Shown here: positions 13,631 through 38,100 of the stretch, in pieces
How positions within the stretch are numbered: the first letter of the stretch is position 1
Layout: each line of letters starts with the position of its first letter
Assembly: GCA_024233545.1 (NCBI GenBank)
Contig: JACKPL010000004.1
Location: forward strand, 153,391-217,390
Source of the DNA: a bacterium
GTDB taxonomy: Bacteria; Auribacterota; Auribacteria; Auribacterales; Auribacteraceae
Length of the DNA: 64,000 nucleotides
Direction: 5' to 3'
Notes under the pieces: model-generated
Told to the model about the DNA's origin: nothing
What the model saw: the letters and a program-made list of their open reading frames with translations, nothing else
The model's database searches: none
Position numbers and translations under genes: made by a program

Positions 13631-13655
13631 TTACAGCACTTAATGCCGGTTTTTA

Positions 13656-16600: not shown

Positions 16601-17390
16601 TTAACCCGAAAGCTAATTCGTCGGCATCGGGTATACCATTCAAATTATTGTCAGACTGGAATGTTCCTTGAGCAACAAGCGCACCACCTTGCAAACTTAC
16701 CGTAAAAACAATAGATCCGAAATAGTTCAGATTACGTATGATGTACGGCTGTCCATCATTGAAATAAGTACCTTGTGCTTCATTATCCATTGTAACAATC
16801 ATCTGGCCTGATACATCATTGGTAATATCAATTCTCTTCCCATCCTGATACACACCGATAACTGAGAAACGCGCCCGATCATAAATCAGTGCATTAGCCG
16901 GTTCAATTTCGATAGATGAAATAGGAATAACCGTAACAGTAACCATCGAAGAAACTGTTGAATTTTGTGAAAGATCATAGGCAGTCGCCTCAAATTGATT
17001 ATTAGGATCGCCAAGTAGCGGTGTCGTAAAATAGCCAATATATGGTGCGTTAGAATCAAGAACACCATAATGGCCGATCCAATAAATAAGCATATGATCG
17101 ATTGCAAAATTATCTTCGGCTGTTGCCTCCATAATAATATCATCACCTGCATAAACCGGTCCTTCATTTATGGAGAAAACCTGTACATTATGCGGCGGCA
17201 CAGGATCCGGCTCAATAACTACGGTAACAGCTGTACTATTATATACATTCCCTGATAAATCAAAGGCATGTACTTCAATTATTGAATTGGTAATGCTTGA
17301 CACTGGAGGGAATATAGCATTAACAAAATATTGACCGCTATCATTACGAACCGCTACCGCATCATTATCGATGATCAGTTCGATAGTCAT
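13656..17390 (-). CDS. Giant-gene segment 5 (C-terminal), 1244 aa. It contains Ig-like (Big) domains, a CBM4_9-like NGGFE module (about 14250-14760) and a Gly-Tyr low-complexity linker. It ends in an Ig-like domain with no recognisable sorting signal. It has no signal peptide, and its ATG lies only 11 nt after the previous segment's stop, so it is probably a frame-shifted continuation.
   Basis: ORF translation. Ig-like patterns (A.D..GN.S......V.V) recur throughout. The frame opens at 17408, only 4 nt before the upstream segment's stop. Confidence 0.8.
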   Translation of the reverse strand: MTIELIIDNDAVAVRNDSGQYFVNAIFPPVSSITNSIIEVHAFDLSGNVYNSTAVTVVIEPDPVPPHNVQVFSINEGPVYAGDDIIMEATAEDNFAIDHMLIYWIGHYGVLDSNAPYIGYFTTPLLGDPNNQFEATAYDLSQNSTVSSMVTVTVIPISSIEIEPANALIYDRARFSVIGVYQDGKRIDITNDVSGQMIVTMDNEAQGTYFNDGQPYIIRNLNYFGSIVFTVSLQGGALVAQGTFQSDNNLNGIPDADELAFGLNPANINTDSTGFVPDVIEVLIDGTDETIESDDYHQVVIPTTGSERYYQMVIERSGNGVGTLMIHEDQTGGPHLSYFFLDNDGTMPIETKLESYFSYYQSYKLKQIDSDKDSGDRQHFVYTLFYDPDVQHVVVDVDNEIITNTTVLNAMDAGGLGNPISYNYCARIDVDDSDNAHIAWIEDNRNAYLASIKYTKLDNDGNVLIPEMTLYSDTSISSSYAYMKALDIAVDNDGNVHAVWTRYPNTSSIYEVYYKMINGTTGETMIDTSMIQSFNNQSRTSSYFTALECEFDNENELVVLYTRYDTQVYSFKLFLMRLTPLSIIPSGFPVSTNDIVASDEILSGQNGQFTVNGALKVIGDEVHVLYSEYMEMIDTNGINPGIENVGWSYRGGYYFSMALYGGYGYIQHDALGYREITYFEDSGVIYIDLNMGGYGGYGGGPLTFGPGDGNDELGLGGYGGYGGYGGYGGNIADAVRLELTYYNYGIYLKVYGTFYDSTDTVVDTFETLLTREYELSRYYKYVIKYYAENMEFPGSSIESIQSTFLFYNNIYELSDYEIHAFDLEIDTDLWALYQWPQYYYYDNLYAHMPFAITSGGGGEGDLSPGDDDSTSNEVQEVPPIINGGFESGTLEGFAYEGQVSVVREYNTLSAIEGNYSALINGNGYLRLNDAIVPAESRYLLFDVSYLMDSEVRLSKEPKVIVHLAGSNGGQEEFVVVDSKLETTGVLLDPYIIINSALDSGEAVTFLLSFKLNAGVRFDFSMNIEGEVEGERAIIDPMLNVVQRIGHFNRANSTMDYYVSITNTSAIDIDGPLKMMVKINSGDVELTSASSNDAVEIVALAKRFSVPVAEYAGSNSTISLTVFNNEAEGAIMVDNVNWDRDVVAEKHAPYVSVISTGSSARFADGYLPGTTLYLLVDFYDSAGVIKVEVFANDESVYQIDSEVGTFAYSYMIPKDTNSELIKVEVKAYDRSGNSAVSKPLYIKVK
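15190..15330 (-). repeat. Low-complexity Gly-Tyr repeat (GGYGGYGGGPLTFGPGDGNDELGLGGYGGYGGYGGYGG) inside giant-gene segment 5
   Basis: Plus-strand repeats of accaccgtatccgccataacc. Confidence 0.8.
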
Positions 17391-17401
17391 GTTATCGCCC
17401 G

Positions 17402-23400: not shown

Positions 23401-26400
23401 AGTCAATTACGGTAACTGCAATAACAGAATCTTCTCCGATAACACCATTATCAAGACGGAATGTTGCCGCCGTGAATGGCGGTTGAGTAACCGGCTCTTC
23501 AGCACGGTCATTAACACTGATTTGCACTTGAGCAATACCACCGTCATCGGTAATATCAAGAGCAAGTGTAACAAGCGAATTCAAGCGTGCATCCGAACCG
23601 TGAGCCGGCGAAAGGATAGCCACATTCGGGGCTTGCGTGTCTGCCACTACTCCATAAGTAACAGGTACCATTGCAGTAGTATTCCCTGCCGCATCACGCG
23701 CAACAGCCCTCACAACAATACTTTGTCCTTCACCGGTGAACGCCGGTACCTGCATTTGAATCGGATACGATGGCGCTACGGTAGAAATACCCATGGATTC
23801 ATTATCCAAGAGCAATTCGACCTGTTGCAGTACAAAATTATCCGTCGCATTAAACGCTACATTCACTCGTTTCCCTTCGACCAATTCAGTGCCTTGAACC
23901 GGCGAAGTAACGAAAATTGTCGGCGGAACATTGTCAAACATTTTTCCAGAATACATTGGTCCATAATTATAATTTGTCGACTCTATTCGGATGATCGGCA
24001 GTAACGTGACCGAATCAACAACGTCTGTTGCGCCGGAACTGCTGGCATCGCCATTAAAGAACAACGCTTTGCCGTCCGGTGTCAATTCGCCAAAATCCGC
24101 ATCATAAAGGTCAAGGCTGACTGTTGCCTCAACTTGCAGAGTATCAGCATTGATCTTGTAGATGGTTTCAGGCCCGGTAACAGTAACAACAAATGCTTTC
24201 GGCCCTTCGGGCGTATATCCTGCCGCAACAGCATATGAACTGCTGTTTAATGCTATAACTTTTTCCACACTTAAGGTATCGAGATTGATAATAAACAATC
24301 TGCTGTTTCGAGTCGACACAAACGCATACGGCGAACCTGCTATGGTTGCAACTTCATACGGTGTATACTGCGATGTTGTGCCCGGTTCAATGGTCGGTAT
24401 ATTTTTGATAATCATACCGTTCACCGCATTCATTACCGTAATGCCGCGTTCCGTACCGGAATGGTTACAAACCAAGATATATTTTTCGTCAGCAGAACGG
24501 AATAAACGTTCCGGTTGGTCAATAGTCTGAAAATCGGATATGGAGAACAGATAGTTAAAACCGGTGTGGCCAAGTGTATCAAATACATCTATCTTATCAT
24601 GGTTAGGACGAGCACAGAACAACAAGTCTTCGTTTTTGGATAACATAAGCGCTCTGGAATAGATGTCATATGTCCCTGTATATTCGTAATCCTGTTCTCG
24701 GTTTCCATTCAAAAGGTTAAAACGATACAATCTCCCGTAATAATCCGTTCGAGCCGTATACGCTTTTTTACCATCTTTTGTAGCAACAATATTGTATGGG
24801 TAATACGAATTGCCGCTTCCATAATCTGCAATTCGCTTATAGGATTTTGCATCAAAGACAGTAAATGTATAGGCACCGTAATTAGGTTTAAGAATAACAT
24901 CCATAAGAAATGGTTTCGAAGCAACCGTGAGAGATACAACACTGCTTACTGCCTGATTGCCGTTTTCATCAAAGGCGCGAGCATAAAGATCAAGTACGGC
25001 TCCCTCGTTTTCCGATAACCTTAACCCAAAGTCATACGGCGCTTGGGTATCGTTGTCAAATAATGCGCCGTTAATATAAAGTTCGACAAGGGCGACCCCT
25101 GCATTATCTGTTGCCGCCACATTGACAAACAATACATCGGTAGCGCCGATTTTATTTCCTGTAGCATTTGTACTGGCAATTGAAACTATCGGAGCAGTAT
25201 TATCGGGAACCACATCAACAAGAATCTGGTCTGACGCGGATGCTCCGCCAAAAGTAAATGCTTCAACTTCTATTACAACATCATTAAGCGGTGTAGATAC
25301 ATCGGGTAATGTAATGGTTGTTTCAAACGGCGGCGTATGCATGATATTGACTACAGTGCCGTCAATTTTAAAATGCATATCCGATACCACTTTCGGGTTA
25401 CTGACATCAACTTTGACAAGCAGTTTTGCACGCGAGGTGTACGTACCCGGCAATGGCGATACCATAGAAACCGTAAACGGTATAACCGCTGATTGATCGG
25501 GTGTTAATAAATATCCAACACCGTTTTCTCCATAAACCGAATACAGCTTTTTAATAATAGTAAAAGAATCAATATCGACAATTGATAACTCGCCCACTCC
25601 ATTTGTCGTTGTTGCAACAAGTAATTTGGTCGGATCAGACTGGGGCACTGTTAGACTCGCAATGTCTCCAAACCCACTCAATGTTGCCATTACTGTATCT
25701 GTCTTGGGATCGATCTTAAAAATAGTATTTTGAGTATCGCTTGCAATAGGTACATAACCTTGCGATGACACACCAGATACTAGGTTTTCAAGGTCATATG
25801 TCAGAGGAATTATCGTTACAAACTGTTTAGTAGCCATATTCATGACTTGGATATCTTCACTGTAATAAGTCGCAAAATAGGCTTTGGTTCCATCTGCAGG
25901 AATTGTAACTTTCCGCAGTGTTTCATTGTTCTGGCTTGGAAATGTCTGAGTGGCCTGCGAAATCAGATTGACTACTGCAATGGTATTCGAGTTATTGATT
26001 GTATAAATCTCTGTCCCATCAGGCGAAATATCCATATCGTAACCGTTAGTTGGTACATAAATAAAACTTTGCATGGTATCAGTCTGAGTATTAATCAGGT
26101 TGATTGTAGTGTTATAATCGAGAACGTATGCCAGATTGAGTTCTGGTTTGAATATGGCTTCCCACTGATTTGTTCCGTTATAAGAAGTAGCCATATTTAT
26201 TGTCTTTACATTATATGTCAACGGATCAATAGCATACATACCTCGTACATTTCCTGAAGCAACATAGATACGGCTTCCGTCAGGCGAAATATCAACTTTA
26301 TTGGCAGAAGTAACCGGAATTGTTGCCTCTATAACTCCAGTCTCAACATTGATAACCGAAACGCTATTCGCACTGGAATTCGGTGAAAGAATTCGGGCAA

Positions 26401-29400
26401 CGAGCGGTACATCAATAGTAATTGTTACAGAATCTGTACCAATATTGCCTGTCATGTCATATGCAGTAACTTCAATTGTTGCTGATTGGTTTGTCATTGA
26501 AGCAGGAATACGAAGGAGCACTTCCCGCTGATCGCTATCGATTACAATCGGCACACCGCCGCTTAGCGTTACCTGAATTGCATCAATACTGCCGCCTATC
26601 GATGATGAATCATCCGCAGTAAACGTAACCAAAACATTGCTGTTTGCATAGACTGTATCATTATCTTCCGGTGAGATAATTGATACAACAGGCGGTGCAG
26701 TATCTTCAAGTACTGACAAATTAACCGGTAAGGATTCGCCGACATTTCCTAACCAATCTGTTGCCCGCAGCTTGATTGAGATATTCGACGCATCGGTAAC
26801 TCTCGGAATCAATACCGATCCTGCAAACGGCAATTCAGGGTCTGTATCAGCCAACAAGACTTGGAAACCTGTTCCGTAATCCATCAGCAGTTCTACCGAC
26901 CGAATAGGCAGAGCATCAAGGATTGAAGCTTCGACAATAAGTTCTATATTTTCGGATACAGATGTTCCATCTAAAGGCGATGTTATAGCAATTACCGGAG
27001 CATCTCTATCATCAGGTATATTGATAACCTGAGTTGCAGTAGAAATACTGTTGTTGAAGAGGTCTCGTGCACGTAACGAGATTGAAAAATCAGTTCCGAA
27101 TTCTTCAGGGCTGACTGGAATACTCATAGTAAATGCCGGGCCTTTTGCCGAATCGAGAGACCTGCCGTTTACAATAAGTTCGACCGTTGCCTGATCGTCA
27201 TCACTCGCTGTTCCCGTAACCACTATCGCATCATTGTCAAACATTATATTTGTAGCCCCAAATACCGGCATACCTTTTCCGACACCAAAATCAAATTCTG
27301 TTAATGTAGTGCTTGAAGACAATCGCGAAACATATACATAATATCCGTGCACTTTAACCGTTTCACACGATGAATTGAGTGTCCATTGAGTCACTAAATC
27401 CAACGACGGGAGCGAATAGACATCAAGACGATCGTATTTTACTTGATAGAGATAATTACCGAATACATCAATACCATCAGAATCTTTTCCAGTATCCGAC
27501 AAATAAAGTATTCTTGTTGGAGTTGCCTTGCTTGTATTGAGATCAAATACAACTATCCCGTAATAATCTATACTTGCATAAAGCTTGTTGTCTTTAATAG
27601 CCAAGCCGTTATGATTATTACTGCTTTGAGTGTCAAGCTGTGCTAATTCCTGCATGTTTGCAGGGTTGCTGACGTTATATGAGAATAATGCATCCTGATC
27701 GCCAACGTACAAATAATTCTTAGTATTATCCAGTATGGCTGAATACGGAAAATCATTTGTCGGGCGAACAAGAGATTGGATAAAAACGGGGTTTTCTCTA
27801 TCAGAAATATCGTAAGAAACAATACTATTGTTATATATCGTAAACAACGTATCATTTCCATTATATACAGCGAAATAAGCATTAAGAGAGATTACTTTAA
27901 CTCGTCTAATCTTTGTGGGCTCGCTAATATCAAATATGTACATCCCGCCTCCATCACTCGGCGCATAGAGATAATCGCCGGCGATAGCAAAATGATATAC
28001 ATATCTGCTGTCCATTGTATCTTGGCTGACTAAATTAAACGTACCGATATCAACAACGCGTATACCGCTACTGCCGCCAAGAAACGCATACTGTCCTCGT
28101 ATCTCAAACCACTCGCAATTTGTAATGTTTATTGAGCGAGTCTGCCCATTGAAAATGAACGCAGGATTAAGCTCGACTACTGCTTCTGAACTTAACAATT
28201 CATCATCAGTCACAATGACATTCAATGAAAGCGGTTCATCCAAATCAGAGTTTGCTACAGTAAAATTCACACTTACCGATGTCGGCGTACCGGGATCGCC
28301 GGTATAGGAATTGTTGTAATAGATTTGCGATCCATTCTGCAATACTTCTATGGTATTGATCGAAGGTGTAAGCCCAAGGTCTTTCACCCTGAATTGCAAT
28401 GTATGAACTGCACCCGCCCTAATGATGTCTCCATCTTCATGCGAAGTAATCTTAACTACGGGGGCGCCATTTTGAGAAGTGGTAATCGTTACGTCAACAG
28501 CATCGCCTTGGTTTCCGGCGACATCGTATGGCGTTACGGTAAACACATTATCGGTCAATAACCCGTTTATTCCAAAGTTAGTTTCAAACGTTACTAAATT
28601 GAGATCAGACCACCCATCCGGTACAGGAAGAGTCACTATATCGAGAGGTTCAGCGCTTCCGCCGGAACCGATTTCAATCTTATCAACCCAAACAGTATCT
28701 CTTCCACTGCATACACTGCCGTCTTTGTAATACATAAACTGTAAATTATGCGTTCCAACAGTTAACGGAGTGCTAAAGAATGTCCATCCCGAATAACCGC
28801 CAACATTGAGCACTAAATTACCATCAACATATAATCGCAATTTATCACAGCATGATTCTGTTTCGAGCTTGTAATAGAACGATATTGTCGTTGCTTCAGG
28901 AATATCAACGGTCAAGAACATCGAACTGTTTTGACTATCCGTTAAAGATGTTGGGCCTTGAGCTGAATACGACCCTTCATATTTTTCGTCAGTAGTAATA
29001 TTCCAGAATCTGTTAGAACTGCCGGTGAATGTCCAAGCTTGTGCGCTGAAATCGCCGGTTTCAAAATCATCAGAATACCCTTGAGAAGGCATAACAAATG
29101 CGGTTTCATCAAAATCAATGACGATATGGTCGACCGCAATATTATCGGTAACCGTAATCGCAACATCAAGCAGTTCGCCGACTGTTCCTTGAGTATCCCC
29201 TGTAACATTCTGGACAACAGGATTGATGGTATCTTCACCGATATTCAATGTGATTAACGATGTATACCCAACATTTCCGCTTAAATCCATTACGCGGGCC
29301 TGCATAGTTACCGAACCGGCATTTTGTGCATAATAGTACAGTTCATAAGGCGGCACAAAATCTTTCTTGTATGGTTTTCCGTCAACAAGAAATTCTACCG

Positions 29401-29644
29401 TCACCGCATCTTTGTTTGTGACATCAACTTCAACGATCGCCGTATCATCGAGTAAAATGGTGTCATTGTCAGAATGCGATACGATGTTTGCTATCGGTGC
29501 ACCAGTTTCAAACGCATTCAATTCATATACACGCACACCATTATTATAATTACAGACAAAAAGCAGATTACCGTATATATCCATGTTGCGGAAAGTGTTG
29601 CTTCCAGAAATTGTACCGAGCAGTTTAATATTATTGCGAATAGC
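17402..29644 (-). CDS. Giant-gene segment 4, 4060 aa from the ATG at 29584. The frame is open and repeat-like back to a TAA at 29645-29647. It has an N-terminal LVIVD-type repeat and no signal peptide, then Ig-like domains and a MAM/CBM-like jelly-roll with Cys pairs (about 28640-29075). At least three YVTN-type beta-propeller repeat arrays follow, interleaved with tandem Ig-like domains.
   Basis: ORF translation. YVTN repeats include DISPDGSRIYVASGNVRGMYAIDPLT, LAYVLDYNTTINLINTQTD, EIYTINNSNTIAVVNLISQ. The in-frame sequence upstream of the ATG (AIRNNIKLLGTISGSNTFRN-MDIYGNLLFVCNYNNGVRVYEL) continues the LVIVD-like repeat. Confidence 0.8.
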   Translation of the reverse strand, partial: AIRNNIKLLGTISGSNTFRNMDIYGNLLFVCNYNNGVRVYELNAFETGAPIANIVSHSDNDTILLDDTAIVEVDVTNKDAVTVEFLVDGKPYKKDFVPPYELYYYAQNAGSVTMQARVMDLSGNVGYTSLITLNIGEDTINPVVQNVTGDTQGTVGELLDVAITVTDNIAVDHIVIDFDETAFVMPSQGYSDDFETGDFSAQAWTFTGSSNRFWNITTDEKYEGSYSAQGPTSLTDSQNSSMFLTVDIPEATTISFYYKLETESCCDKLRLYVDGNLVLNVGGYSGWTFFSTPLTVGTHNLQFMYYKDGSVCSGRDTVWVDKIEIGSGGSAEPLDIVTLPVPDGWSDLNLVTFETNFGINGLLTDNVFTVTPYDVAGNQGDAVDVTITTSQNGAPVVKITSHEDGDIIRAGAVHTLQFRVKDLGLTPSINTIEVLQNGSQIYYNNSYTGDPGTPTSVSVNFTVANSDLDEPLSLNVIVTDDELLSSEAVVELNPAFIFNGQTRSINITNCEWFEIRGQYAFLGGSSGIRVVDIGTFNLVSQDTMDSRYVYHFAIAGDYLYAPSDGGGMYIFDISEPTKIRRVKVISLNAYFAVYNGNDTLFTIYNNSIVSYDISDRENPVFIQSLVRPTNDFPYSAILDNTKNYLYVGDQDALFSYNVSNPANMQELAQLDTQSSNNHNGLAIKDNKLYASIDYYGIVVFDLNTSKATPTRILYLSDTGKDSDGIDVFGNYLYQVKYDRLDVYSLPSLDLVTQWTLNSSCETVKVHGYYVYVSRLSSSTTLTEFDFGVGKGMPVFGATNIMFDNDAIVVTGTASDDDQATVELIVNGRSLDSAKGPAFTMSIPVSPEEFGTDFSISLRARDLFNNSISTATQVINIPDDRDAPVIAITSPLDGTSVSENIELIVEASILDALPIRSVELLMDYGTGFQVLLADTDPELPFAGSVLIPRVTDASNISIKLRATDWLGNVGESLPVNLSVLEDTAPPVVSIISPEDNDTVYANSNVLVTFTADDSSSIGGSIDAIQVTLSGGVPIVIDSDQREVLLRIPASMTNQSATIEVTAYDMTGNIGTDSVTITIDVPLVARILSPNSSANSVSVINVETGVIEATIPVTSANKVDISPDGSRIYVASGNVRGMYAIDPLTYNVKTINMATSYNGTNQWEAIFKPELNLAYVLDYNTTINLINTQTDTMQSFIYVPTNGYDMDISPDGTEIYTINNSNTIAVVNLISQATQTFPSQNNETLRKVTIPADGTKAYFATYYSEDIQVMNMATKQFVTIIPLTYDLENLVSGVSSQGYVPIASDTQNTIFKIDPKTDTVMATLSGFGDIASLTVPQSDPTKLLVATTTNGVGELSIVDIDSFTIIKKLYSVYGENGVGYLLTPDQSAVIPFTVSMVSPLPGTYTSRAKLLVKVDVSNPKVVSDMHFKIDGTVVNIMHTPPFETTITLPDVSTPLNDVVIEVEAFTFGGASASDQILVDVVPDNTAPIVSIASTNATGNKIGATDVLFVNVAATDNAGVALVELYINGALFDNDTQAPYDFGLRLSENEGAVLDLYARAFDENGNQAVSSVVSLTVASKPFLMDVILKPNYGAYTFTVFDAKSYKRIADYGSGNSYYPYNIVATKDGKKAYTARTDYYGRLYRFNLLNGNREQDYEYTGTYDIYSRALMLSKNEDLLFCARPNHDKIDVFDTLGHTGFNYLFSISDFQTIDQPERLFRSADEKYILVCNHSGTERGITVMNAVNGMIIKNIPTIEPGTTSQYTPYEVATIAGSPYAFVSTRNSRLFIINLDTLSVEKVIALNSSSYAVAAGYTPEGPKAFVVTVTGPETIYKINADTLQVEATVSLDLYDADFGELTPDGKALFFNGDASSSGATDVVDSVTLLPIIRIESTNYNYGPMYSGKMFDNVPPTIFVTSPVQGTELVEGKRVNVAFNATDNFVLQQVELLLDNESMGISTVAPSYPIQMQVPAFTGEGQSIVVRAVARDAAGNTTAMVPVTYGVVADTQAPNVAILSPAHGSDARLNSLVTLALDITDDGGIAQVQISVNDRAEEPVTQPPFTAATFRLDNGVIGEDSVIAVTVIDSVGNSASTSITLNVLEPVFDIIVAASYNQREIHRLDFNGMTSVLNAPGGTNSGQFTDMASTHDGEYLFALSASTSQSFNKIRVYKMPQGTLVREIDDTGTFKGRFSSIVIDKNDRFAYVSTEWNSSSSSPTGNSKIVVLDIPVCIDPESTGDPIFTTSYDGPSLYNNSGEYVRVNLALSHSGNTLWAASPSTYNSSTYYSRRWTVTNLESTGSLPSAIAMNYGWDVENYFDGTNDLIYMPYSTDDYRKFHADTGSNYYNVDINVNNGNISIGKVSDTLSVMAIAYRSSNIIYIRKIEGGLSSDSYTSIANVSLPYVPMDSDFTPDGKYLFVYYQSNTGYSVIKTSDWSHTYYPTSGIYRRILMSTATDAVNPTIELAADPVKESYLVGEEVSLVATVDDNQGVEFVEYYLNGGLLGTDAQTPFAFPFVGNVPSGATPFEIQAKAYDFAGNSALSSIITITVVDDSIAPTVTIAAVTDLVGVNAGMPVVVTANAQDNASISRVEYTLFDGVNSSTAVATVPPYQTILYLDDNVSNSQVFTITAVAVDGAGNVSDLSNILNGITSPETFVKQGKLFSIAYTSAYRLFVTDDITHATTELLINNADYIKISPLQYGFLFRQGNDEVIVFNKFTREIVKVFTYSDGFDGPRDIAFDAVRKLAYITSAYNNKVMVVSLESLTVVHQITTSNTGTRLYYPWSVVVTPDGQYLYVSNQSFTYSDPTYSRILVFNLDDYSEVKRYSDSSGVGLDYEMVMLPYGNKAYITNTNNNGTLYEIDTASTSFTQIKTNVGGQYPVGGLTPMGLRVFMFYDSPDDIYMYNPETGEAELWLDMASLPSIYAMDISDDGRYLYMATSNNYIRKIEIATKNIEDIAMPIGTRDVDYHLLTIFDTVPPSIVLNGVPSSATEGTALTFTALPTSSIGIRNVSLYINGERFEEKIVGPYSFTYRVPVDVASFEVYAQVTDVSGIRAQSAPQTVTVLNDTDAPVVSIVIPEDNETAYADSFVVLNVEISDATDNIKFVQVLYNGVPVKFLGTEAYLNLGGAPYQTSIPIEEDALEASATIEVIAVDYAGLMTSDSVALTVVRSDYNQLLMVNNAGALFDLDTNTLIAGDLGISTGVNFVATDAKYHQQRDQLFIAMYDTQSEREQLGMVDFNAQVFSYRTGNQYFRTQTVELAEQNSQLFALLFPEYPFDYVTVMNIDSPSTSPYGYQYIRGARGTVTAPDGRIYIAEYGYEDGSHPSYWCSRITNYDLTTGNGSLTGFTSASAYRGTAINLNQAGNILYVGRFYQSANQYEIARIDTGPFTSAAGLFRTVDSEISSIESVVISGSERILAALPDNDTILVFDPTTLNEVDSWSVPSPDRLQFDTIENALFVFSKADNLIAKIDVETGTVVAQNSVAGPVAVFGRINKLLPDVAVPVVTIVSPLDNESYFEGHLLSIQISAVDENIDAIEMFYNNIKAETINANGQSSLTILKRLPIIDGASDVLTIEVRAKDMFGNIGRSDKIAITILDDTEAPAVTMTEPIAGQTVIGGSWVDVIGVSTDNSGTQSMVEIIEIYFDNDIIDVLSPEEDGTFDRPIVIPVNVYSDPMTVGVIAQDYAGNRSSKISVQVNLLFEAEPTAGYDDRDVYDTYVLDDKLYITSYQILEVYDISSLIPGGGGEGESGVGETGIGGELEFAGSELSFLGNVPRISTANRLVYTSTANPYSLYHFVVENGFIYGVGTYSGWSSTQFIVMGASFDPYDFNLKAQIQLDDETIENREGVILLNGDRAYVGHDDGVWVLNVRFPNSPVVLPGIEDNDSGTLALEATEDNLYRLTRRGQIHVYELDNLELLQTITLYTPAPEAPLPDFGDLEVKDSVLYATDEIGGLFSVGITQTPLSFGTPAFILIDDLDGEMPMGIDSIGDFTVIHGMNDVFFLDTSSLGSEIVLGSVSQFTNVPIEYQITDCYIYGNQLIVQSGEAAIVNIYHDLGGAPTVELDLPADINDRHYIGGESSVLIPFDA

Positions 29645-30090
29645 TTAGCATCCCATACAGCAATACCGGTTAGCGTTGAGTTGCTCGAAACAAATGCAAT
29701 ATCGCCGATTGATAACAGACCGCCCCATTGATAATTGTGTCCTGATGGGGATTCGGTATCAACCCATGATCCCGTAGCAGTAGCGCTTGCGCCTCGCGCA
29801 TCAGCAACAGCTATCCGGCTACTTCCTACAACCAACACATAGTCGCTATCTAACGCCTGCAGATACCGAGTATAGTAATAATAACTATTGTTCAACCAGT
29901 TATTTGTCGTTCCTGACAGCGTTTCGACATCAGAAATATCTGCATTTAACAATGAGAAATACGGATTGGAATACTCACCTGTCCAATATGCCATATTGCC
30001 TTCCAACCATACACCAAATGCATAATATGAGCTGGTTTTACTGCTGTAGTATTTCGCTCGCCGACATAACGGTAAGACAACGTAGGCACG
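29645..30090 (-). CDS. Giant-gene bridging segment 3, in the third reading frame (track ORF 29518-30006, 162 aa, starting at TTG). It carries protein-like LVIVD-type sequence and connects segment 2 to segment 4 through two frame changes.
   Basis: The frame-C translation is ...YAFGVWLEGNMAYWTGEYSNPYFSLLNADISDVETL...DSDYVLVVGSSRIAVADARGAS...IAFVSSNSTLTGIAVWDAK. It is protein-like precisely where the flanking ORFs' own frames turn into non-domain-like text. Confidence 0.65.
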
Positions 30091-33000
30091 GTCGGATTCG
30101 TATAATTCACATTTGAAATATCGAGCACCTGTAGTTGATGCCTGTATGCCGCCGTAAAAGCATACTGTCCGCGCACTTTAACATCATACACATTTCCATT
30201 TGTACCGAAATTATGAGTTCCGACATGAACAGGCTGAACCGGGTTCGCAATATAATACGTACCCAATCCGGAAGATGCGCGGGCAACATAGACAAAATCA
30301 CCTTGATAATCAATATTATGAGCGGCTGTCGTAGAGAAAGTACTTTGCGACCTGTTGATGAGATCAATCACCGCTAAACTTGAATTGTTTGCCACATACA
30401 TCCACTTCGGCGACACAGTTGTCGGTAAACTGGATTGATTCGTAACAGGATCACCGACCACATACACATCTTCTGCGGCAAATGATCCGCCGGTAACACT
30501 TCCATTGTTGTACAGACGGTATAATTCGCCCGAATTAGTGATTTCCCTGATAGCAAAAGTGGTAATGAGTTCAACAGGCGCAGTAATGGTGAAATTATCA
30601 CTGATATCTTCAGCACGCACTTTAAGCTCTGTAGTGTGGCCTGCATTCCCGGGGACAGTCAAGGAATACGAATAAGGAGTGGTTGTATCGGTAAACACTA
30701 ATGCACCGTCAACAAAGAATTCTACTGCGCTAATTAAACCGCTATCTTGTACATTCGCTTCAATTGACACCACTGATAGCCCTGCAATAACTTCTAACCC
30801 GTTAACCGGTGATGTTATTGTAACCGACGGCGCCGATAAGTCATCAGTCACCGCAAAAGACTTTTCAGCTAAGAGAGTTACATTGCCGTTAATATCCTGC
30901 ACTGCGCCCGATATCACGAGCGGAAGAGGAGGATTGCCCAAAGGCAATGGCACGTTTTGAATAGTGAACGGCGGTTTATTAAATAATGTTTGTACGCCGT
31001 TGACATTAACTGTAACAACCTGAATACCTAGATTGTCCTGAGCCGATATATCGACCGTAGTTGTTGTTCCTTCAAGGAGGAACTTATCATCGGTAGGCTG
31101 AATAATACTTATAACAGGAGATTCATTATCTTCCAAAACAGTAACAGCAACTTCCAGTGCTGATGTGAACGTAATATTTCCACCCAAATCAATAGCATTT
31201 GCATTGATAAGAAGCGTTGAAGGCCCGCTGTTCGGGGCAGTAAGATAATCGAATTGGAATGGAACAGTATTATCTACTGCGACCACTTCACCATTAACAA
31301 GAAATTCGATAGTAACGCCAGTATCATCTGTTGCAGAAGCGGTCAACAGGATTGAATTGCCTTCAATGACTTGAGTCGGCACAACGCTAACGGATTGAAT
31401 TTGCGGAGCTTCCAACTGGCCGCTGATAAGCCTCAGCAATCGTATTCCGCTGGTATCGTTAGCAATATATGCAATGTCGCCAACCACATCGATATCAATA
31501 GCATCAGCTCCGGTACTTGCATTTCCTACTAATGTCATCTCAAATGGATTCTCAACGTTAACCATTGCTATTCCATTTGTTCGGTCTGAAACAAAGGCGA
31601 TAGAACCGACAACATCCACGTATTGTGTTTGACTTAATCGATTAGGACCGGATAACTTGCGCGCCAATCCCATACCGATTAATTCTGCAGTTTGCTCTTT
31701 AAGCTGATATGACAACAAACCAATACCATAATCGGCAATATATACAATATTGTTATTGATACTGATTCCTCGCGCATCGCCGGAAGTGTCGTAGGTATTT
31801 TTTAATACCGGTGAACGAGGGTTACTTATATCGATTGTAGCCATACCATTTGTACCTTGAGTCAATATAAGCACATTACCTTGAATTGCTATTTTCTTCG
31901 GCCCTGTTACCGATATTTGCGAACCTGAAATTTCAAATGGCGTTGCAGGGTTATTTAAATCAAGCACGGTTAATTTATTTGCCGTTTCATCTGAAACAAA
32001 AGCAAACTGGCCGCGAACCTGTACATCATTAGCGCTTGAGAATATATTTCCCGTCTCGCCAATAAATTCCAATTCTTCATTTTCAAACCTGAAAATCACA
32101 AAATTCGTAGATGTTATTGCATATATTGTATTTTGAATGACTACCAGATCACTAATAGTATACGTTGCATCACTCGTAACAAGGCTGATATTGAGCGGAT
32201 CGGATATATTCAATACAACCAAGCCGCCTGCACCGTCAGCAACGAACGCATAATCGCCGACTACTCTCATATGAGTTGCATCAGTCGTCGGGAAATCAGC
32301 TAAAAATTCTGTACTAATGATAATATCAAGAGTAATCGGTGCAGATATTCCAACTTGCCCTACCGAATCGATCGCTTTAGCACGGATATCTACCACAGCG
32401 CTTCCCGTACCGTTTGGTATCTTGACTGTACCGGCATAAGGTGCAGTTGTATCGACTACTGATGCGCTGTCGTTATCCTGAACACCATCAACAAAAACGA
32501 AGAACCGAACGCTTTGTATTTGCCCGACATCGTCTGATGCATCTGCCGTTGCAGTAATTTCCGAACCGGACGCAACAACGGTATAAACAGGTGGAGAGGT
32601 CACAACCACATTCGGCGGCAAATCGCCCGTAATGGTTCCTGTAATAGTCACCACCGTACTAGAATCTCCTGCATCGTCTGTTGCGAAAACAGATATTGTC
32701 ATGGTCTCGCCTTCAGCTGTCGCAGGGATAGGATAATTACTCACTGTATACGGCGAAGAATTTCTCACAAATTGCTGAGTAATCGGCGCACCGGCTCCTT
32801 GAGATATCTCAATATCAATTGTAACTGATCCGATTAGCGGAATCTGGTTATTATTGACATCTTGGTCATACGCAAAAGCCTGAATGGTAAGAACATCACC
32901 TTCAGTAACCTCAAAACCATTAACCGGCGCAAGGAATCCCGCAATCGGCGGTATATTAGTTAGCGCGTTTACCGTTGCAGTGGCAGTACTGGACACCATC

Positions 33001-35108
33001 GTTTCATCAAATGCTGTTGCTGATACCGTTACAGAATAATTGCTTGATGCAACCGGCAATACAAACGATGCCGCATAGGGATACGTTGTATCATTCTGAT
33101 TAAACAGAATTGTACCGTTGTCATATTCTGCAGTAAAGGTTACGCCGTACACAGCAATATCATCTGTTGCCTGAGCACTGATCGTCACTGAATTACCCAT
33201 GAGCTGACGCGGCATAACCGATAAATTGGACAAGGTTGGCGCTTGATCGGAACGTTTGGATATTGTAACCGTCTCGGATGGCGAAACGTTTCCATTGATG
33301 TCGATTGCGGTTACCGAAGCGCTTGCTTCCGTTAATCCTGACGCCAAATGAGTCATTCCCAGTTTATTTTCCGCAACATCGAGAATGCTCTTATTCACTT
33401 TAATCATTGTGTACTGCCAGTTTTCACCCGGCACGAAGAACACCGTTTTGCCCGACAATGTTTGATTGAGTTTCCGAGCTGTCCCATCAAAATAATCGAA
33501 CATTGCACCACCGGGCGCTCCCTTAATATAATAGTTCTTAGACACATCAATCAAACTCACTGTAGGTGCACTTGTTCCGGGCGTAATACCGACAATACCT
33601 GTTACTGAATCGAAATCTTCATCGGTATTTGTTGTGCCATACGTAATCTGAATAAGCCCTGTTTTAAAGAGTGTTATCTCATAGTGGTTAATTGAACTTG
33701 TCGAACCATAGACACCTAAATAGAGGTGATAATAAAGGATTAACCTATCAGGATACTGCGCATATGCAACATACCGGTTATACGGAGATGAATATGCATA
33801 ATCCCACCATTGCTGGTCAAACACCGCTGATATGCGTGGACGGGTATTCAGGAAAGCATCTATTGATACTGTCTGGTCATTATCACCCTGAGCTTGGCTG
33901 GAATTGCCGCTAAAGGTCAAGAACCCGCTGTTATGAATGTAAACCGTCGAATACGTAGTACCGTAAAATGGGAATGTAAACCCTTGGCTAAAATTAAGAG
34001 TCATTGGGTTTGTATCATAATAATAACCTGTTAAATTTCGGGCAATACCTAAATATCCAACCTCACTGACCACATCGTTGAAGGTTCCGGTCAAGTCAAC
34101 GCCTTGCGCTGAGAGGGTGTAATCAACAACCTTAATATTATCGGTTGCAGTTGCCATTACCAGCATTGACGATCCGTCAACAAACTGTTGGCTCGTCGGT
34201 AAAATTACAGAAACAGAAGGCGGATCGAAGTCTTGTAACCGATTGATAGTCCGAGTTGCAATCGCCACATTGCCATTGATATCAACCGCTCGTACCGTAA
34301 ATACCACTTGCTGAGGATCAACCGGGCCTTGTTCGATTTCATGTGCCAACTGTAATGAAATCGGTTGTGCAGTAGGCACAGCGTTGTATATCTCAACATT
34401 ATTCGCTGAAATAATTATGTGCTCAACAGTAAGGTTATCACTGGCATCAATGTTGAGATTAACAATCGTTCCTTCAAAGAAATTTTCATTTTCGGACGGT
34501 GTATTGATTGCAATAGAAGGAATCTGGTTATCCATCAATGTTGCAAACGATATCGGATCAGCAAGATCACTTTCCATACCGGAAAGATTTATCGCGCGCG
34601 CAGTATACTCATATGGTATTCCTGCCGATCCCGGAGCGGTAAGATGATAAAATTCATAGGGTGCTTTATTCGCTATGCCCGCAGGCTCACCGTTAACAAA
34701 GAATTCTACTGTGATATTGCCCGGCACATCAGGCACTGCTGTAATTATCGCAGTCTCGCCTTCAATAACATCGGTATCATCAATCTGCATTGTTAAGGAC
34801 GGCACTGCGGTTTCACCGAAATCAAGCCTTGCAATCATGAGGTAAGAATTAGTCAGTGGCGATATCAAATAGTTTCCTACTATTTTCATTTCACGCAAAT
34901 CATTGCCGACACCAAGTTCGCTATGTGACAAGGCATTGATCTGTTCAATATCACTCGGATTCGAAACATCATACACAATCAGCCGATTTCCACTGTCATC
35001 ATTTTGGAATAAATACTGCCCGATAACTTCAATGGTGCGCACTTGGAAAGCGCCTGTTGCACAACCGGCTTGAGTCAACGTATTTTTATTTAAATATATA
35101 CGCCTTCC
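29946..35108 (-). CDS. Giant-gene segment 2, 1710 aa from a TTG at 35078, with the frame open to 35108. It has LVIVD beta-propeller repeats, tandem Ig-like domains and no signal peptide. Its last ~45 codons (below about 30087) look out of frame relative to bridging segment 3.
   Basis: ORF translation. LVIVD repeats include AIQGNVLILTQGTNGMATIDISNPRSPVL, IVYIADYGIGLLSYQL, QYAFTAAYRHQLQVLDISNVNYTNP. Confidence 0.8.
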   Translation of the reverse strand, partial: GRRIYLNKNTLTQAGCATGAFQVRTIEVIGQYLFQNDDSGNRLIVYDVSNPSDIEQINALSHSELGVGNDLREMKIVGNYLISPLTNSYLMIARLDFGETAVPSLTMQIDDTDVIEGETAIITAVPDVPGNITVEFFVNGEPAGIANKAPYEFYHLTAPGSAGIPYEYTARAINLSGMESDLADPISFATLMDNQIPSIAINTPSENENFFEGTIVNLNIDASDNLTVEHIIISANNVEIYNAVPTAQPISLQLAHEIEQGPVDPQQVVFTVRAVDINGNVAIATRTINRLQDFDPPSVSVILPTSQQFVDGSSMLVMATATDNIKVVDYTLSAQGVDLTGTFNDVVSEVGYLGIARNLTGYYYDTNPMTLNFSQGFTFPFYGTTYSTVYIHNSGFLTFSGNSSQAQGDNDQTVSIDAFLNTRPRISAVFDQQWWDYAYSSPYNRYVAYAQYPDRLILYYHLYLGVYGSTSSINHYEITLFKTGLIQITYGTTNTDEDFDSVTGIVGITPGTSAPTVSLIDVSKNYYIKGAPGGAMFDYFDGTARKLNQTLSGKTVFFVPGENWQYTMIKVNKSILDVAENKLGMTHLASGLTEASASVTAIDINGNVSPSETVTISKRSDQAPTLSNLSVMPRQLMGNSVTISAQATDDIAVYGVTFTAEYDNGTILFNQNDTTYPYAASFVLPVASSNYSVTVSATAFDETMVSSTATATVNALTNIPPIAGFLAPVNGFEVTEGDVLTIQAFAYDQDVNNNQIPLIGSVTIDIEISQGAGAPITQQFVRNSSPYTVSNYPIPATAEGETMTISVFATDDAGDSSTVVTITGTITGDLPPNVVVTSPPVYTVVASGSEITATADASDDVGQIQSVRFFVFVDGVQDNDSASVVDTTAPYAGTVKIPNGTGSAVVDIRAKAIDSVGQVGISAPITLDIIISTEFLADFPTTDATHMRVVGDYAFVADGAGGLVVLNISDPLNISLVTSDATYTISDLVVIQNTIYAITSTNFVIFRFENEELEFIGETGNIFSSANDVQVRGQFAFVSDETANKLTVLDLNNPATPFEISGSQISVTGPKKIAIQGNVLILTQGTNGMATIDISNPRSPVLKNTYDTSGDARGISINNNIVYIADYGIGLLSYQLKEQTAELIGMGLARKLSGPNRLSQTQYVDVVGSIAFVSDRTNGIAMVNVENPFEMTLVGNASTGADAIDIDVVGDIAYIANDTSGIRLLRLISGQLEAPQIQSVSVVPTQVIEGNSILLTASATDDTGVTIEFLVNGEVVAVDNTVPFQFDYLTAPNSGPSTLLINANAIDLGGNITFTSALEVAVTVLEDNESPVISIIQPTDDKFLLEGTTTTVDISAQDNLGIQVVTVNVNGVQTLFNKPPFTIQNVPLPLGNPPLPLVISGAVQDINGNVTLLAEKSFAVTDDLSAPSVTITSPVNGLEVIAGLSVVSIEANVQDSGLISAVEFFVDGALVFTDTTTPYSYSLTVPGNAGHTTELKVRAEDISDNFTITAPVELITTFAIREITNSGELYRLYNNGSVTGGSFAAEDVYVVGDPVTNQSSLPTTVSPKWMYVANNSSLAVIDLINRSQSTFSTTAAHNIDYQGDFVYVARASSGLGTYYIANPVQPVHVGTHNFGTNGNVYDVKVRGQYAFTAAYRHQLQVLDISNVNYTNPTVPTLSYRYVGERNTTAVKPAHIMHLVYGWKAIWHIGQVSIPIRISHC

Positions 35109-38100
35109 TCATTTGCGGCCGCATAGAGGTAATTGCCGTTAATTTCTATGTCGCGAATATTTTTACCACTTAATGCAGTAGTTACAAACACTGGAACCGG
35201 ACCGTTGGCAATACTATAAATCTTAACGCCATCGCCACTGGTTGCAATATAAAGTTTGTCTTCCGAATACAATACTCGTGTATAAGTGTAGCTACCATTC
35301 CTCGATAGATGCGAAATAATCTGAGGCATCGTGGGTCTAATCAAATCTATTGTATACAAGCCGTCATCATAATCCGCTATATATGCATAACGTCCGACAA
35401 CTGCCATGGATAAGGTATCATCACCAAGAGCATCGATATTGCCTAATGTACTCAATTTTGCATAATCATCGGTGATAAACTTAAATGTCTCTAAGCCTCC
35501 ATCATATGACGCAACATAGATTTTTCCATTCGCAATGCTCGAATCATAATAGGTATTGCTCGTGCTCAGCGTTTTCACTATTGATACAGGAAGGTAGACA
35601 AAACCATTCTGATCATAATACTCAACTTCCATATTCGGAGCAGGAACAAAATTGTTGTGATTCGCGCCGGTAATAATTGTCTCTATGTAATCGATAACAA
35701 TATTCCCCGGATTAGTGAAGTTAATGTTAATAACACCGTCTTCAAACGAAGGCATGAGCGATGCAGGAACGTTTAGCGTAGACAACGTTATACTGCCATC
35801 CGGTAAACTGATCGACTGGAATGACTTCAATTTATCCGAAAGGTTAGTATTCTCAACCTTGATTGTGTTTTGGTCTCGTTCGCTATTTTCCACATCGCCG
35901 GCGAGGACTTTTATCTGAGCGTATAATGGCGTAATGCCAGCAAGTGAAAATCCCTGAACCGCAGTGAAGGCACCTGAAAATAACCAACCATCGGTATATG
36001 TTGGGTCGGTCGCCTCGGCATTCGTAAAGAAATCGTTGGGATAACTTACCGCGCCGTCAATATCAAAGTCAGGCAAAACTCCGCCTTCTGCAAGCGGCGG
36101 AATAAAGCCGAAACCGTCTTTATCTCCTGACAAAACTACTACTTGCGTTAGCGAATCTGTACTTACTAGCAGTTCAAAATTTTTCAATTGATGCCCCGAT
36201 CCATACGGTTGATGGATACGAATCCTGCTTAAATCGATCGGCTGGCTAAAATACCACCATGCCGTTTGATCAACAAAATTCGGACTCCTTGCCCACCCAT
36301 TCCCTGAAGAAGCGATAACGCCATCATATGTCTCAGAAAGCGGATAGCCGCTTTGCTCAAAAGTTGCTCGCGAATATGCTATGCCAACTGGTGTTTCGCT
36401 AAATTCACTCAAGAATTCTATTTCGCCTAATACGAAATTATTATTTGAAGCAAACGTATTGATAACACGCAGTTTAACCATACCCGCATTAGGAATGGTG
36501 TCAAACGCAATTTCGATATATCCGGCGCCCGGATCAACGGGAACGGTAATCAACCCGCCGTTTATTTCCACATCTTTTTGAGCGTAATTTGCCACTCTAA
36601 CTGCACTGCCCGACCCAAAGGTTATATAGTCACGGTTTGCATCAAGCAATTCGAGGGTACTGGTACTCACTTGATTGACCACTTGTATGCCAACCACAAT
36701 TTCAATAATATAGGTTATAGTTTCACGGACATGCGGCACTGGCGGATGCGTATCAATCACGCGCGCTTTTACCCCAATCAACTCGCCTATTCTATCTGAA
36801 GGTATGCGGAACGAACCGCTCGTATCGAACAATTTATACTGGCTTGAACTCGGCGTTTTTACAGAAACAATGTGTTCTTCTAAATTTCCATCACTATTGC
36901 TGTCAAACGGATCATTCACCACCAGAAATTCGACACGAGCCATGCGCACATCATCGGAGGCGCTCACCGAGAAAGTACCGAATGCTCCTGCTGAGAACTT
37001 GTTATCATCAGGAAGATTGGTGAAGTTAATCGATGGAGGCGCATCGGCAAGAAGATTTACCGTAATCGGGTCTGACGGCATAGATTGCGAAGAATTGTCA
37101 ACCGCAACCGCATGCAACAACGCTTTACGCGACAACGTCGGATGAGAACCGCCCGACAATCCGAATCCATTGATTGAATAGTTCACGCCATTATCGGTAA
37201 CCGTTCCACTTATTTGATCAAGAGACGAATTCAATTGTAAACTCATTGCACTAATTTGATGGAGCGCATTATTAAGGATAAAGGTGATCGGCTCTACCAA
37301 TGATAGCGAATTATTTGTATTGTATTTTACTCGAGCATTTATGACAGTATTATTACCGCCAGATGACAACGTCATTCTTAAATCTGCTAAGCTGTTATAC
37401 TGTATAACTTGAATTGATGGTACAGCCAATAACGGCCATGATGTTGTGCCGGTGTACGTACCTGAGAAGTTGGGTGCGTAAATCGGCATAGCAATAGTTG
37501 CAATATAGAGATTCCCGCTGGAGGCGCTTGTATCTACTCCTTTATATTCATTATCAGCATAAAAATCAACTCGCGACATACCACGGTCATCTGTAGCGAC
37601 AGCACGTACTTCAATACTTGAACCTTCAAATGCATTCGAATTCGATGCCGGTTGAGTCATGCTCACTACTGGCGGATCATCATCATCAATATCAATCCGC
37701 ATTGCACTAGATTGTACTGTATGAGCCGCCACATCAACCGAACCGCCATAGTTATCTCGCAATTTCACATACACCGTAAAATATTTAACGGCCGGACTCT
37801 GAATTTCAGGAGCAGTAGCAGTATACCTAAAGTAACTCGCGCTATATCCTGAACTCGTCGATGAATCACGTCCTAGATAGATATCATTATCCCATTCAGA
37901 ACCATTCCATACATTCATATAGAAATCGCAATAATTGAACCAGCGGTCGTCATTCTTCGGTGAACTTACCACAAAATCAATGTTGAAGCTATTAAACTCT
38001 TTGACACTCGCCGGTAAACGGAATTCATCGCCGACGATGACAGGCGGTTCATCTCTTTTTACAAGCAACTGCCGAGTGATAGGTTGAATATGCCACACAT

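Follow-up and report, generated by a model that had tools for sequence, protein, structure and literature searches.

Two long reading frames lie end to end on the minus strand of a 64,000-nt stretch of bacterial DNA (the whole stretch that we analyzed, referred to here as the window). The upstream frame, segment 1, stops at almost the same place where the downstream frame, segment 2, opens. Is this junction, J1, a boundary between two genes, a site where ribosomes change frame, or a break in one gene? If it is a break, does it lie in the DNA of the cell or only in the assembled consensus?

Two frames of the minus strand overlap by 16 nt at J1

On the minus strand, frame 0 at J1 reads ...NGNYLYAAANEEGVYI and then meets TAA. 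The frame of segment 2, which begins after a TGA, reads GRRIYLNKNTLTQAGCATGAFQVRTIEVIGQYLFQNDDSGNRLIVYDVSNPSD. A frame map indicated that both frames are open across 16 nt only (35108–35093), as an earlier note on this DNA had described together with the stop and the TGA. The same note had reported no homopolymer longer than 3 nt there, and we found the same: runs inside the overlap are at most 2 nt, and a TTT run at 35094–35092 straddles its edge. The positions of all features are listed in Table 1.

The segment 2 frame is −1 (equivalently +2) relative to that of segment 1. The frames can therefore be joined only if one base is added or two are removed, or if the ribosome slips by −1. The earlier proposal that a single ±1 event would fuse them was right about a single small change and too broad in allowing either sign. 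Among the possible repairs, an extra T in the TTT run, giving GVYI-LNKN, scored best against a blade profile (35.7 bits). Removal of TA scored 31.3 bits, and changes at other sites scored 29–30 bits. Pfam analysis of ten 1,000-aa pieces indicated that segment 1 encodes a modular protein of TIG, Big_5, Big_7 and LVIVD-propeller modules. Its frame is still open at 64000, so the start of the gene lies beyond the window.

Table 1. Features of the interrupted gene in the window, in the order in which they are read on the minus strand
Feature	Position	Strand	Description	Basis
Segment 1	35093–64000	−	9,636 codons, open at window edge	Frame map; Pfam on ten 1,000-aa pieces
β-Propeller module cut by J1	34794–35635	−	Repaired residues 9456–9736; about six four-stranded blades	
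TGA bounding the segment 2 frame	35109–35111	−	On the 5′ side of the frame	
J1	35093–35108	−	16 nt, GGAAGGCGTATATATT, both frames open; the −1 (+2) change must fall within	
TAA, stop of segment 1	35090–35092	−	Directly after ...GVYI	
Segment 2 frame	29949–35108	−	1,720 codons; Big_7 Ig modules, LVIVD propellers, conserved N-terminal-type domain shared with P0145	
TTG, first start codon of segment 2 frame	35076–35078	−	Inside a blade; start of the longest ORF	
GTG, deposited start of segment 2	35040–35042	−	Mid-propeller; MCP5462454.1, H7A34_04660, 1698 aa	
J2, second −1 break	30015–30059	−	Switch at GAG-CG-AAA, 30059–30052	tblastn and sequence comparison
Segment 3	29521–30056	−	About 135–145 translated codons between J2 and J3	
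J3, third −1 break	29626–29644	−	Within GCTATTCGCAATAATATT; ortholog alignment picks up in the next frame at 29638	
Segment 4 frame	17405–29644	−	4,080 codons	
J4, fourth −1 break	17405–17411	−	Both frames open over CGCG only; TAA 17404–17402, ATG 17390	
Segment 5	13656–17408	−	1,250 codons; conserved C-terminal region of the giant protein; unannotated 1,244-aa ORF	

J1 splits one blade of an LVIVD β-propeller

The fused translation across J1 matched the LVIVD family (PF08309; Adindla et al. 2004, PMC2447325) with 34.2 bits, against a gathering cut-off of 20.2. This alignment had been suggested in the earlier note, which took J1 to cut an LVIVD repeat and leave its halves in two frames. Matches to the same family, with 23–122 bits, were present in many other pieces of segments 1, 2 and 4. 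The LVIVD homologs P0001–P0003 aligned across the join (query residue 226), and so did internal paralogous modules of the giant protein.

The repaired 281-aa module was modeled using AlphaFold2. It folded as a closed propeller of 24 strands (pLDDT 86.8, pTM 0.86), with J1 in the third strand of the fourth blade. The join is located inside strand E178–183, where the local pLDDT was 96–98. The top Foldseek matches of the module were WD40-type and other β-propellers, with TM scores of 0.6–0.74 to PDB entries. The module thus consists of tandem repeats of ~42 aa, each folding into one four-stranded blade. Pfam, homologs, paralogs and the predicted fold thus bore out the reading in the earlier note: the two frames at J1 encode two halves of one LVIVD β-propeller blade. 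By its Pfam score and predicted fold the interrupted module resembles known LVIVD-repeat proteins. A difference is that in proteins such as P0001–P0009 the propeller is the core of a 400–800 aa protein, whereas here many propeller modules are part of an Ig-rich protein of several thousand residues.

Segment 2 lacks a credible start

No SD-like core was found 4–20 nt upstream of the TTG, and no RBS-like or SD-like core was found before the deposited GTG. An SD-like core was present in six of the nine genuine genes of the window. The earlier note was right that the TTG has no RBS-like sequence upstream, and mistaken in calling it the annotated start, as the deposited record uses the GTG. Its broader view that segment 2 is without a credible start of its own agrees with our results, since both codons lie in the middle of a blade. 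No promoter or terminator of note was found at J1.

Three more −1 breaks divide the same gene

J1 was the first of four −1 breaks that divide one gene into five apparent genes. At J2, the sequence of the ortholog P0146 is VGEKYYSSKSSSYY; in the window, YVGE stands in one frame and KYYSSKTSSYY in the following one. We considered the AAAA run at 30039–30036 as the site of J2 and rejected it, because P0146 places the switch about 20 nt upstream. Segment 3, between J2 and J3, is deposited as a 158-aa hypothetical protein (MCP5462453.1, from ATG 29994); its product, searched with four alternative starts, was found in no other assembly of the collection. Segment 4 is deposited from ATG 29584 as a 4,060-aa "beta-propeller fold lactonase family protein" (MCP5462452.1).

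J4 looks like a normal stop/ATG gene boundary. This reading was rejected on an Ig-module profile, sequence alignment, AlphaFold2 modeling and the contiguous orthologs P0145, P0146 and P0148. Pfam Big_7 gave no match at the module concerned, so a profile built from the protein's own Ig modules was needed; it placed J4 at position 34 of 87. The alignment indicated that conserved residues of this module are encoded upstream of the ATG. Segment 5 aligned with the last ~1,200 residues of P0146 (5,523 aa) and with residues 6209–7220 of P0145 (7,267 aa). Judged from these alignments, segment 5 is the C-terminal part of the giant protein and not a separate gene. We attach no meaning to an apparent confinement of the breaks to LVIVD propellers, as most of the 1,000-aa pieces contain propellers and J4 interrupts an Ig module.

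Orthologs read through J2–J4 in one frame

Two collinear orthologs cross J2–J4 unbroken, and one of them shares the trp-operon synteny. P0145, P0146 and P0148 are in frame at J2, J3 and J4, and tblastn indicated that consecutive ortholog residues change frame in the window at the breaks. P0145 and repaired residues 10400–16782 gave a single alignment of 6,609 columns, over which the lengths were nearly equal (6,383 aa in the window and 6,391 aa in the ortholog). This coverage ends short of J1: neither ortholog contig, L006 (SRR28093593) or L007 (JGI 3300007351, Ga0104751_1002621), extends to it, and P0145 starts at about repaired residue 9870, with J1 at 9636, about 235 residues farther upstream. 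Because the orthologs read through J2–J4 in one frame, the ancestral state was probably a single ORF of at least 16,782 aa. The repaired protein consists of TIG/Big_5/Big_7 Ig-like modules alternating with LVIVD β-propellers.

The L007 contig shares the order giant gene/trpCFBA/manC/ruvX/M16/rpe with the window. The nearest named neighbors of the TrpB of the window were from Ca. Auribacterota MAGs, with ~72% identity. A paper on Auribacterota (PMC9324843) does not mention giant genes. Close relatives spanning J1 were sought by protein search and by scans of GTDB genomes, JGI metagenomes and viral contigs. Only generic LVIVD proteins of at most 31% identity were found, a result of little weight because the protein search also missed P0136, P0138 and P0139, which are exact matches in the collection.

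The giant gene contained no long DNA repeats, only a 44-nt family with 60–80% identity, and its internal modules were ~25% identical to each other at the protein level. A misassembly by repeat collapse was therefore rejected. The longest A/T run in the giant gene was 6 nt, compared with 7–8 nt elsewhere in the window, so that the giant gene is depleted of long A/T runs.

Recoding, phase variation and gene fission are improbable causes of the breaks

Programmed −1 ribosomal frameshifting is known from dnaX and IS3-family transposases. The locus resembles these in having overlapping frames in −1 register with a zero-frame stop near the overlap. A slip at each junction (−1, or +2 at J1) would give the full-length protein and make the breaks attenuators of expression. 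The four shifts do share a direction, a zero-frame stop stands at the possible J1 shift site, and TAT-to-TAT +2 re-pairing is formally possible in GTATATATT. However, the narrow windows of J1 and J4 contain no X_XXY_YYZ heptamer in the zero frame, and their zero-frame codons (GAA GGC GTA TAT ATT TAA at J1, GAC GCG TAA at J4) do not allow −1 P-site re-pairing. The RNA downstream of J1, J2 and J3 was no more structured than dinucleotide shuffles (z = −0.58, −0.24, +0.24 and +1.61). A slippery heptamer and a downstream structure, which the earlier note had named as the signs to look for if recoding was suspected, were thus both missing. The four sites have no common motif, the orthologs are plainly in frame at J2–J4, leaving nothing conserved, and four serial events of low efficiency would leave almost no full-length product. 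Unlike dnaX and the IS3 family, the locus also has no internal SD. The resemblance to phase variation at simple sequence repeats, as in contingency loci, is a frame change in a surface-protein gene beside a short (TA)3, T3 or A5 stretch, but these tracts are far too short, with (TA)3 and runs of at most 3 nt at J1, and no long homopolymer or multi-unit repeat tract was found at the J1 shift site. The locus thus offers no support for programmed recoding or phase variation, as it has neither a slippery site nor structured RNA downstream, and neither a ribosome-binding site nor a long repeat tract. We rate recoding as the least probable of the explanations considered.

Functional fission supposes that the breaks are real and that five collinear polypeptides are made separately by termination-reinitiation. 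A start codon does lie near each stop, 11 nt after it at J1 (TTG 35078) and J4 (ATG 17390) and overlapping or adjoining it at J2 and J3, and the deposited annotation lists separate proteins. However, chance alone would put an ATG, GTG or TTG within about 10 codons of roughly every second stop, and we treat the equal spacing at J1 and J4 as coincidence. Each piece would start within a domain (in the middle of a blade at J1, in the Ig module at J4, with conserved residues left behind upstream of the ATG) and would be without a signal peptide or RBS, and the orthologs are unsplit. We find fission quite improbable. A related version seems less probable still. In it, the organism would tolerate real breaks, an adhesin-like giant gene would be in the midst of fission, and its pieces would still be expressed through termination-reinitiation or low-level spontaneous frameshifting. 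The halves of the split propeller and Ig modules would then come together again, or the cell would make the distal 7,100 residues only rarely, as a means of tuning expression.

A real truncating lesion or an error of the consensus

We prefer, with a probability of about one half, the explanation that J1 is a DNA-level frameshift lesion in one giant gene, neither a gene boundary nor a recoding site, and that a real truncating mutation was followed by decay downstream. We infer from the following that the breaks are in the DNA of the cell rather than in the consensus only, and in what order they arose. All four breaks fall in the 3′ 21.4 kb; the 28.9 kb upstream and 11.6 kb of other genes are free of them. 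Uniform placement over the ~62 kb of coding sequence would give such clustering with P = 0.014, or 0.07 by a range statistic, which is marginal. Decay that follows a first truncation should show this polarity, which favors a real lesion and speaks against an artefact. The assembly also appears indel-accurate. Six A/T runs of 7–8 nt sit inside genes with full-length Pfam matches, and the independent Logan assembly L005 (SRR12358675), from the same population, matched over 10,248 bp with 99.93% identity, seven substitutions and zero gaps, seven A/T runs of 7–8 nt included. Zero gaps in 10 kb are only mildly informative, with P ~0.5 at the implied rate of ~0.065 per kb. The narrow windows of J1 and J4 contain no homopolymer longer than 3 nt and are thus atypical of homopolymer-type read errors.

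The gene may instead be intact in the organism as one ORF of at least 16,782 aa, and its four single-base breaks may have arisen during sequencing or consensus calling, for example from residual single-base deletions in long-read or hybrid data or from local errors at strain-variable sites in short-read data. The population is polymorphic, with 7 SNPs per 10 kb relative to L005. All four breaks are minimal and −1, with no nonsense codon or larger indel, and the 7,100 codons downstream carry no stop or other damage and are collinear in length with the ortholog. Such uniform breaks look more like a systematic single-base deletion artefact than like natural decay, in which indel sizes and directions vary. 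The absence of the segment 3 ORF from the other assemblies weakly suggests that the breaks are specific to this one. There is also a published precedent: West-Roberts et al. (2023, bioRxiv 10.1101/2023.11.21.568195) described giant genes thrown out of frame in this way, in long-read assemblies and one Illumina-only assembly, and merged after curation. As here, these were very long modular ORFs of uncultivated bacteria, split by single-base breaks into adjacent same-strand ORFs that repair turned into one gene. The differences are that their breaks were proven errors by read curation, whereas this locus is known from assembled sequence, that their proteins have 30–85k aa compared with at least 16.8k aa here, and that their lineage is Omnitrophota, whereas the nearest named TrpB here is of Ca. 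Auribacterota, which makes the lineage here a different or an unclassified one. On balance, we regard an artefact as a serious possibility.

If the preferred truncation is real, J1 most likely arose when a single base was lost, plausibly by shortening of TTTT to TTT at 35094–35092; alternatively, a TA unit may have been gained in GTATATAT. As written, translation would halt at the TAA once 9,636 or more residues had been made, within strand three of the fourth of six propeller blades. The truncation at J1 may have come first and released the 21.4 kb downstream from selection, and this distal region could later have gained the frameshifts at J2, J3 and J4. The locus would then resemble frameshift pseudogenes of large surface or adhesin genes: the truncating frameshift interrupts a conserved domain, all other lesions are downstream of it, and orthologs are intact. 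It differs from them in having one lesion type and no nonsense codons or larger deletions. The decay, if real, would therefore be very recent, with such damage yet to appear.

Significance for the organism and for giant genes

These results suggested that five deposited or callable "genes" of this MAG belong to one gene, whose product of at least 16,782 aa is among the larger bacterial proteins. Two of the pieces are annotated as "hypothetical proteins" and one, of 4,060 aa, as a "lactonase family protein"; another is an ORF of 1,244 aa that the annotation leaves out. Orthologs of the gene occur in two or more other uncultivated organisms, and in one of these the synteny beside the trp operon is kept. 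Real or artefact, J1 points to no new coding or regulatory mechanism. If the breaks are artefacts, the locus would be another case of giant genes hidden by single-base errors. If they are real, the population would carry a freshly truncated giant surface protein, and the locus would be a small case study of the decay of a costly gene.

Reading frames at the first break

The giant-gene region is coded on the minus strand of the window as five successive open-frame pieces (segments 1–5) separated by four breaks (J1–J4), and every frame change along it is −1. The terminal codons of segment 1 are AAC GGC AAT TAC CTC TAT GCG GCC GCA AAT GAG GAA GGC GTA TAT ATT TAA. Its C-terminus translates as NGNYLYAAANEEGVYI, and the stop lies at 35092-35090. 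The downstream frame is one base behind frame 0 (−1, equivalently +2) and reads GRRIYLNKNTLTQAGCATGAFQVRTIEVIGQYLFQNDDSGNRLIVYDVSNPSD... after a TGA at 35111-35109. Both frames are open only across 35108-35093 (GGAAGGCGTATATATT, 16 nt). The earlier note gave the same two stops and the same overlap, and all were reproduced. The absence of homopolymers longer than 3 nt was also confirmed: the longest run inside the overlap was 2 nt, and a TTT (35094-35092) straddles its edge. The earlier note proposed that a single +/−1 event fuses the frames; this holds for a one-base addition, whereas a one-base deletion fails. The frames were fused only by +1 base, −2 bases, or a −1 ribosomal slip.

Pieces of the giant gene, later breaks and tblastn matches of the ortholog P0146 in the window
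Feature	Coordinates	Strand	Frame	Length	Deposited record
Segment 1	64000 (window edge)-35090	minus	0	9,636 codons	
Segment 2	35108-29946	minus	2	1,720 codons	MCP5462454.1, 1698 aa, start GTG 35042, 'hypothetical protein'
Segment 3	30177-29518	minus	1	219 codons	MCP5462453.1, separate protein
Segment 4	29644-17402	minus	0	4,080 codons	MCP5462452.1, separate protein, 'beta-propeller fold lactonase family protein'
Segment 5	17408-13656	minus	2	1,250 codons	
J2	30015-30059	minus			
J3	29626-29644	minus			
J4	17405-17411	minus			
P0146 q1-245	30791-30054		−3		
P0146 q259-414	30015-29554		−2		
P0146 q385-559	29638-29117		−1		

One propeller domain across J1

Pfam matched LVIVD (PF08309) and Big_7 on either side of J1. 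When written out, the repeats ran unbroken over it: ...TLSMAVVGRYAYIADYDDGLYTIDLIRPTMPQI... / ...TYTRVLYSEDKLYIATSGDGVKIYSIANGPVPVF... / IRDIEINGNYLYAAANEEGVYI | LNKNTLTQAGCATGAFQ / VRTIEVIGQYLFQNDDSGNRLIVYDVSNPSD. Three distant LVIVD proteins (P0001-P0003, identity ≤29%) aligned without interruption over the join, for example P0001 GNYVYLADGSGGLRVFNVSnpaSPVQVG with J1 gnylyaaaneegvyilnkn---tltqag, and paralogous propeller modules of the same protein did likewise. The repaired 281-residue module was modeled using AlphaFold2 as a confident all-beta structure (24 strands, pLDDT 86.8, pTM 0.86). The join follows model residue 181, within strand E178-183 (local pLDDT 96-98), and Foldseek matches of the model were beta-propellers. 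These lines of evidence agree that one domain spans J1, as the earlier note expected of the fused translation, and the broken module is a genuine LVIVD propeller. Since one domain spans J1, segment 1 as written would stop inside a six-bladed propeller, at the third strand of its blade 4, leaving segment 2 to start mid-blade. Repairs were scored with a blade profile trained on the other blades of the same protein, with the J1 blade masked. The best-scoring repair was GVYI+LNKN (an extra T in the TTT run; 35.7 bits), followed by loss of a TA unit (31.3 bits) and by insertions elsewhere (~29-30 bits).

Orthologs read through the later breaks

The giant proteins P0145 (7,267 aa, contig L006, Logan SRR28093593) and P0146 (5,523 aa, contig L007, JGI 3300007351, Ga0104751_1002621) come from other uncultivated organisms. 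P0145 gave a single BLAST alignment to repaired residues 10,400-16,782 (6,609 columns, 32.6% identity, 2,927 bits), spanning J2 (11,322), J3 (11,457) and J4 (15,533) in repaired numbering. P0146 also aligned across all three, with 45% identity near J2 and J3. In tblastn, consecutive ortholog residues switch frame in the window (Table); at J4, q146 finishes at 17411 and q148 starts at 17405. Because the orthologs are in one frame over J2–J4, the ancestral state there is one ORF. With the chosen joins, the repaired ORF is 16,782 aa and still open at the window edge.

On L007, the giant gene is followed by trpC, trpF, trpB, trpA, manC, ruvX, U32 peptidase, M16 and rpe, the window order except for an extra U32 gene in L007 and sulP in the window. 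The P0145 frame is open from about repaired residue 9,870 at the contig end, and the P0146 frame likewise to its contig end; J1 lies beyond both. That J1 is also a break within one gene is supported by domain continuity and by analogy with J2–J4. L006 begins with residual Nextera adapter (AGATGTGTATAAGAGACAG), which supplies an apparent in-frame stop.

J4 could be read as an ordinary gene boundary (TAA 17404-17402, then ATG 17390). Module profile, alignment, fold and orthologs refuted this. The 1,244-aa ORF beginning there (13656-17390) enters an Ig-module profile, built from 52 of the giant protein's own Ig modules, at position 34 of 87; with the segment 4 tail added, the match reaches position 11. 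In the module alignment, two of three near-invariant positions flank J4, one per side, and D36 is encoded upstream of ATG 17390. The repaired module was an Ig-like sandwich (AlphaFold2, pLDDT 87.2). The 1,244-aa ORF had no Pfam match, and the deposited record passes from SulP (...451) to segment 4 (...452) without giving it an accession. In an exhaustive HMMER search it corresponded to the last ~1,200 residues of far larger proteins: query 2-1197 matched P0146 residues 4303-5476, and P0145 contains a counterpart at its C-terminus (~31% identity to both). The ORF represents the conserved C-terminal part of the giant protein. A word-indexed protein search missed the exact-match collection members P0136, P0138 and P0139, and locus negatives from it are untrustworthy. 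A fragment from a closer relative (P0147) was 89% identical to the ORF. J4 sits within the palindrome ACGCGT at 17404-17409 (GACGCGTAAC, minus strand).

The N-terminal part of segment 2 (32529-35108) shares a ~330-aa region (...FTFPFYG...NHYEITL...GLIQITYG...) with P0145 residues 12-336 at 40% identity. It has no Pfam assignment and may be an uncharacterised domain of the giant-protein family.

Origin of the breaks

The earliest start codon of the segment 2 frame is TTG 35078. A GGAG/AGGA/AAGG core precedes the ATG in six of nine genuine window genes; none was found before this TTG, in keeping with the earlier note. The deposited start lies 12 codons further on, still mid-propeller, and no promoter or terminator stands out at J1. 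Functional fission or reinitiation is very unlikely. Programmed frameshifting, raised earlier as a check, is more improbable still, as every testable sign of it was absent. No X_XXY_YYZ heptamer was found at J1, no −1 re-pairing of zero-frame codons is possible in the overlap (the sole formal re-pairing is TAT to TAT, +2), and RNA 3' of J1 was no stabler than shuffled controls (z = −0.58, −0.24). At J2–J4, conserved programmed recoding is excluded by the one-frame orthologs. Repeat-mediated phase variation was rejected, every testable sign of it being missing at the junction.

J1 is an ordinary frameshift break, like those known from pseudogenisation and from assembly artefact, both well known. 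We put real mutation at a probability of about 0.5. J1 would truncate the gene first, and the downstream remainder would then drift and collect further breaks. The four breaks all fall within the 3' 21.4 kb, whereas the 28.9 kb upstream and 11.6 kb of other genes contain none (P = 0.014 under uniform placement; range statistic 0.07), and this clustering counts for mutation because such drift predicts it. The assembly also proved free of indels at the sites open to checking: six runs of 7-8 A/T lie in genes whose Pfam matches are full-length, and an independent Logan assembly from this population (L005, SRR12358675) aligned without gaps. Further points for mutation are the lack of homopolymers >3 nt in the J1 and J4 overlaps and the lack of long DNA repeats in the giant gene. 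L005 corresponds to window 1033-11280 (99.93% identical); over these 10,248 bp it differs by seven substitutions (three synonymous and four non-synonymous, three of them in trpB) and by no gap. A sequencing or assembly artefact is almost as probable. All four lesions are of the same minimal −1 type, with no nonsense codons or larger indels in ~7,100 downstream codons, and downstream length is collinear with the ortholog. The segment 3 ORF was absent from the other assemblies searched, with four start choices tried. Published cases show giant genes broken up in just this manner by single-base indels and, in one instance, by a local error of short-read assembly (bioRxiv 10.1101/2023.11.21.568195).

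Long A/T homopolymers are strikingly scarce in the giant gene (17402-64000; longest run 6; nine runs in 46.6 kb); the rest of the window (1-17401, 17.4 kb) has 35 A/T runs of 6, four of 7 and five of 8. Amino-acid composition could account for this scarcity, as could selection, in a very long ORF, against tracts prone to slippage.

Lineage and corrected gene model

The window TrpB is identical to MCP5462447.1, encoded on a 232,180-bp contig of an NCBI MAG, and its closest named relatives are from Ca. Auribacterota MAGs (~72% identity). At least four further assemblies of the lineage are present in ENA, Logan and NCBI (TrpC cluster members, e.g. MCB1195720.1). Downstream of rpe, a 980-aa protein (718-3660, minus) matched DUF2963 (E = 4e-10).

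The gene model is corrected from five pieces to one gene, with three junctions beyond J1. The useful outcome is this corrected model together with the identified intact orthologs. The giant gene adds a new, lineage-specific member to the class of giant modular surface proteins.
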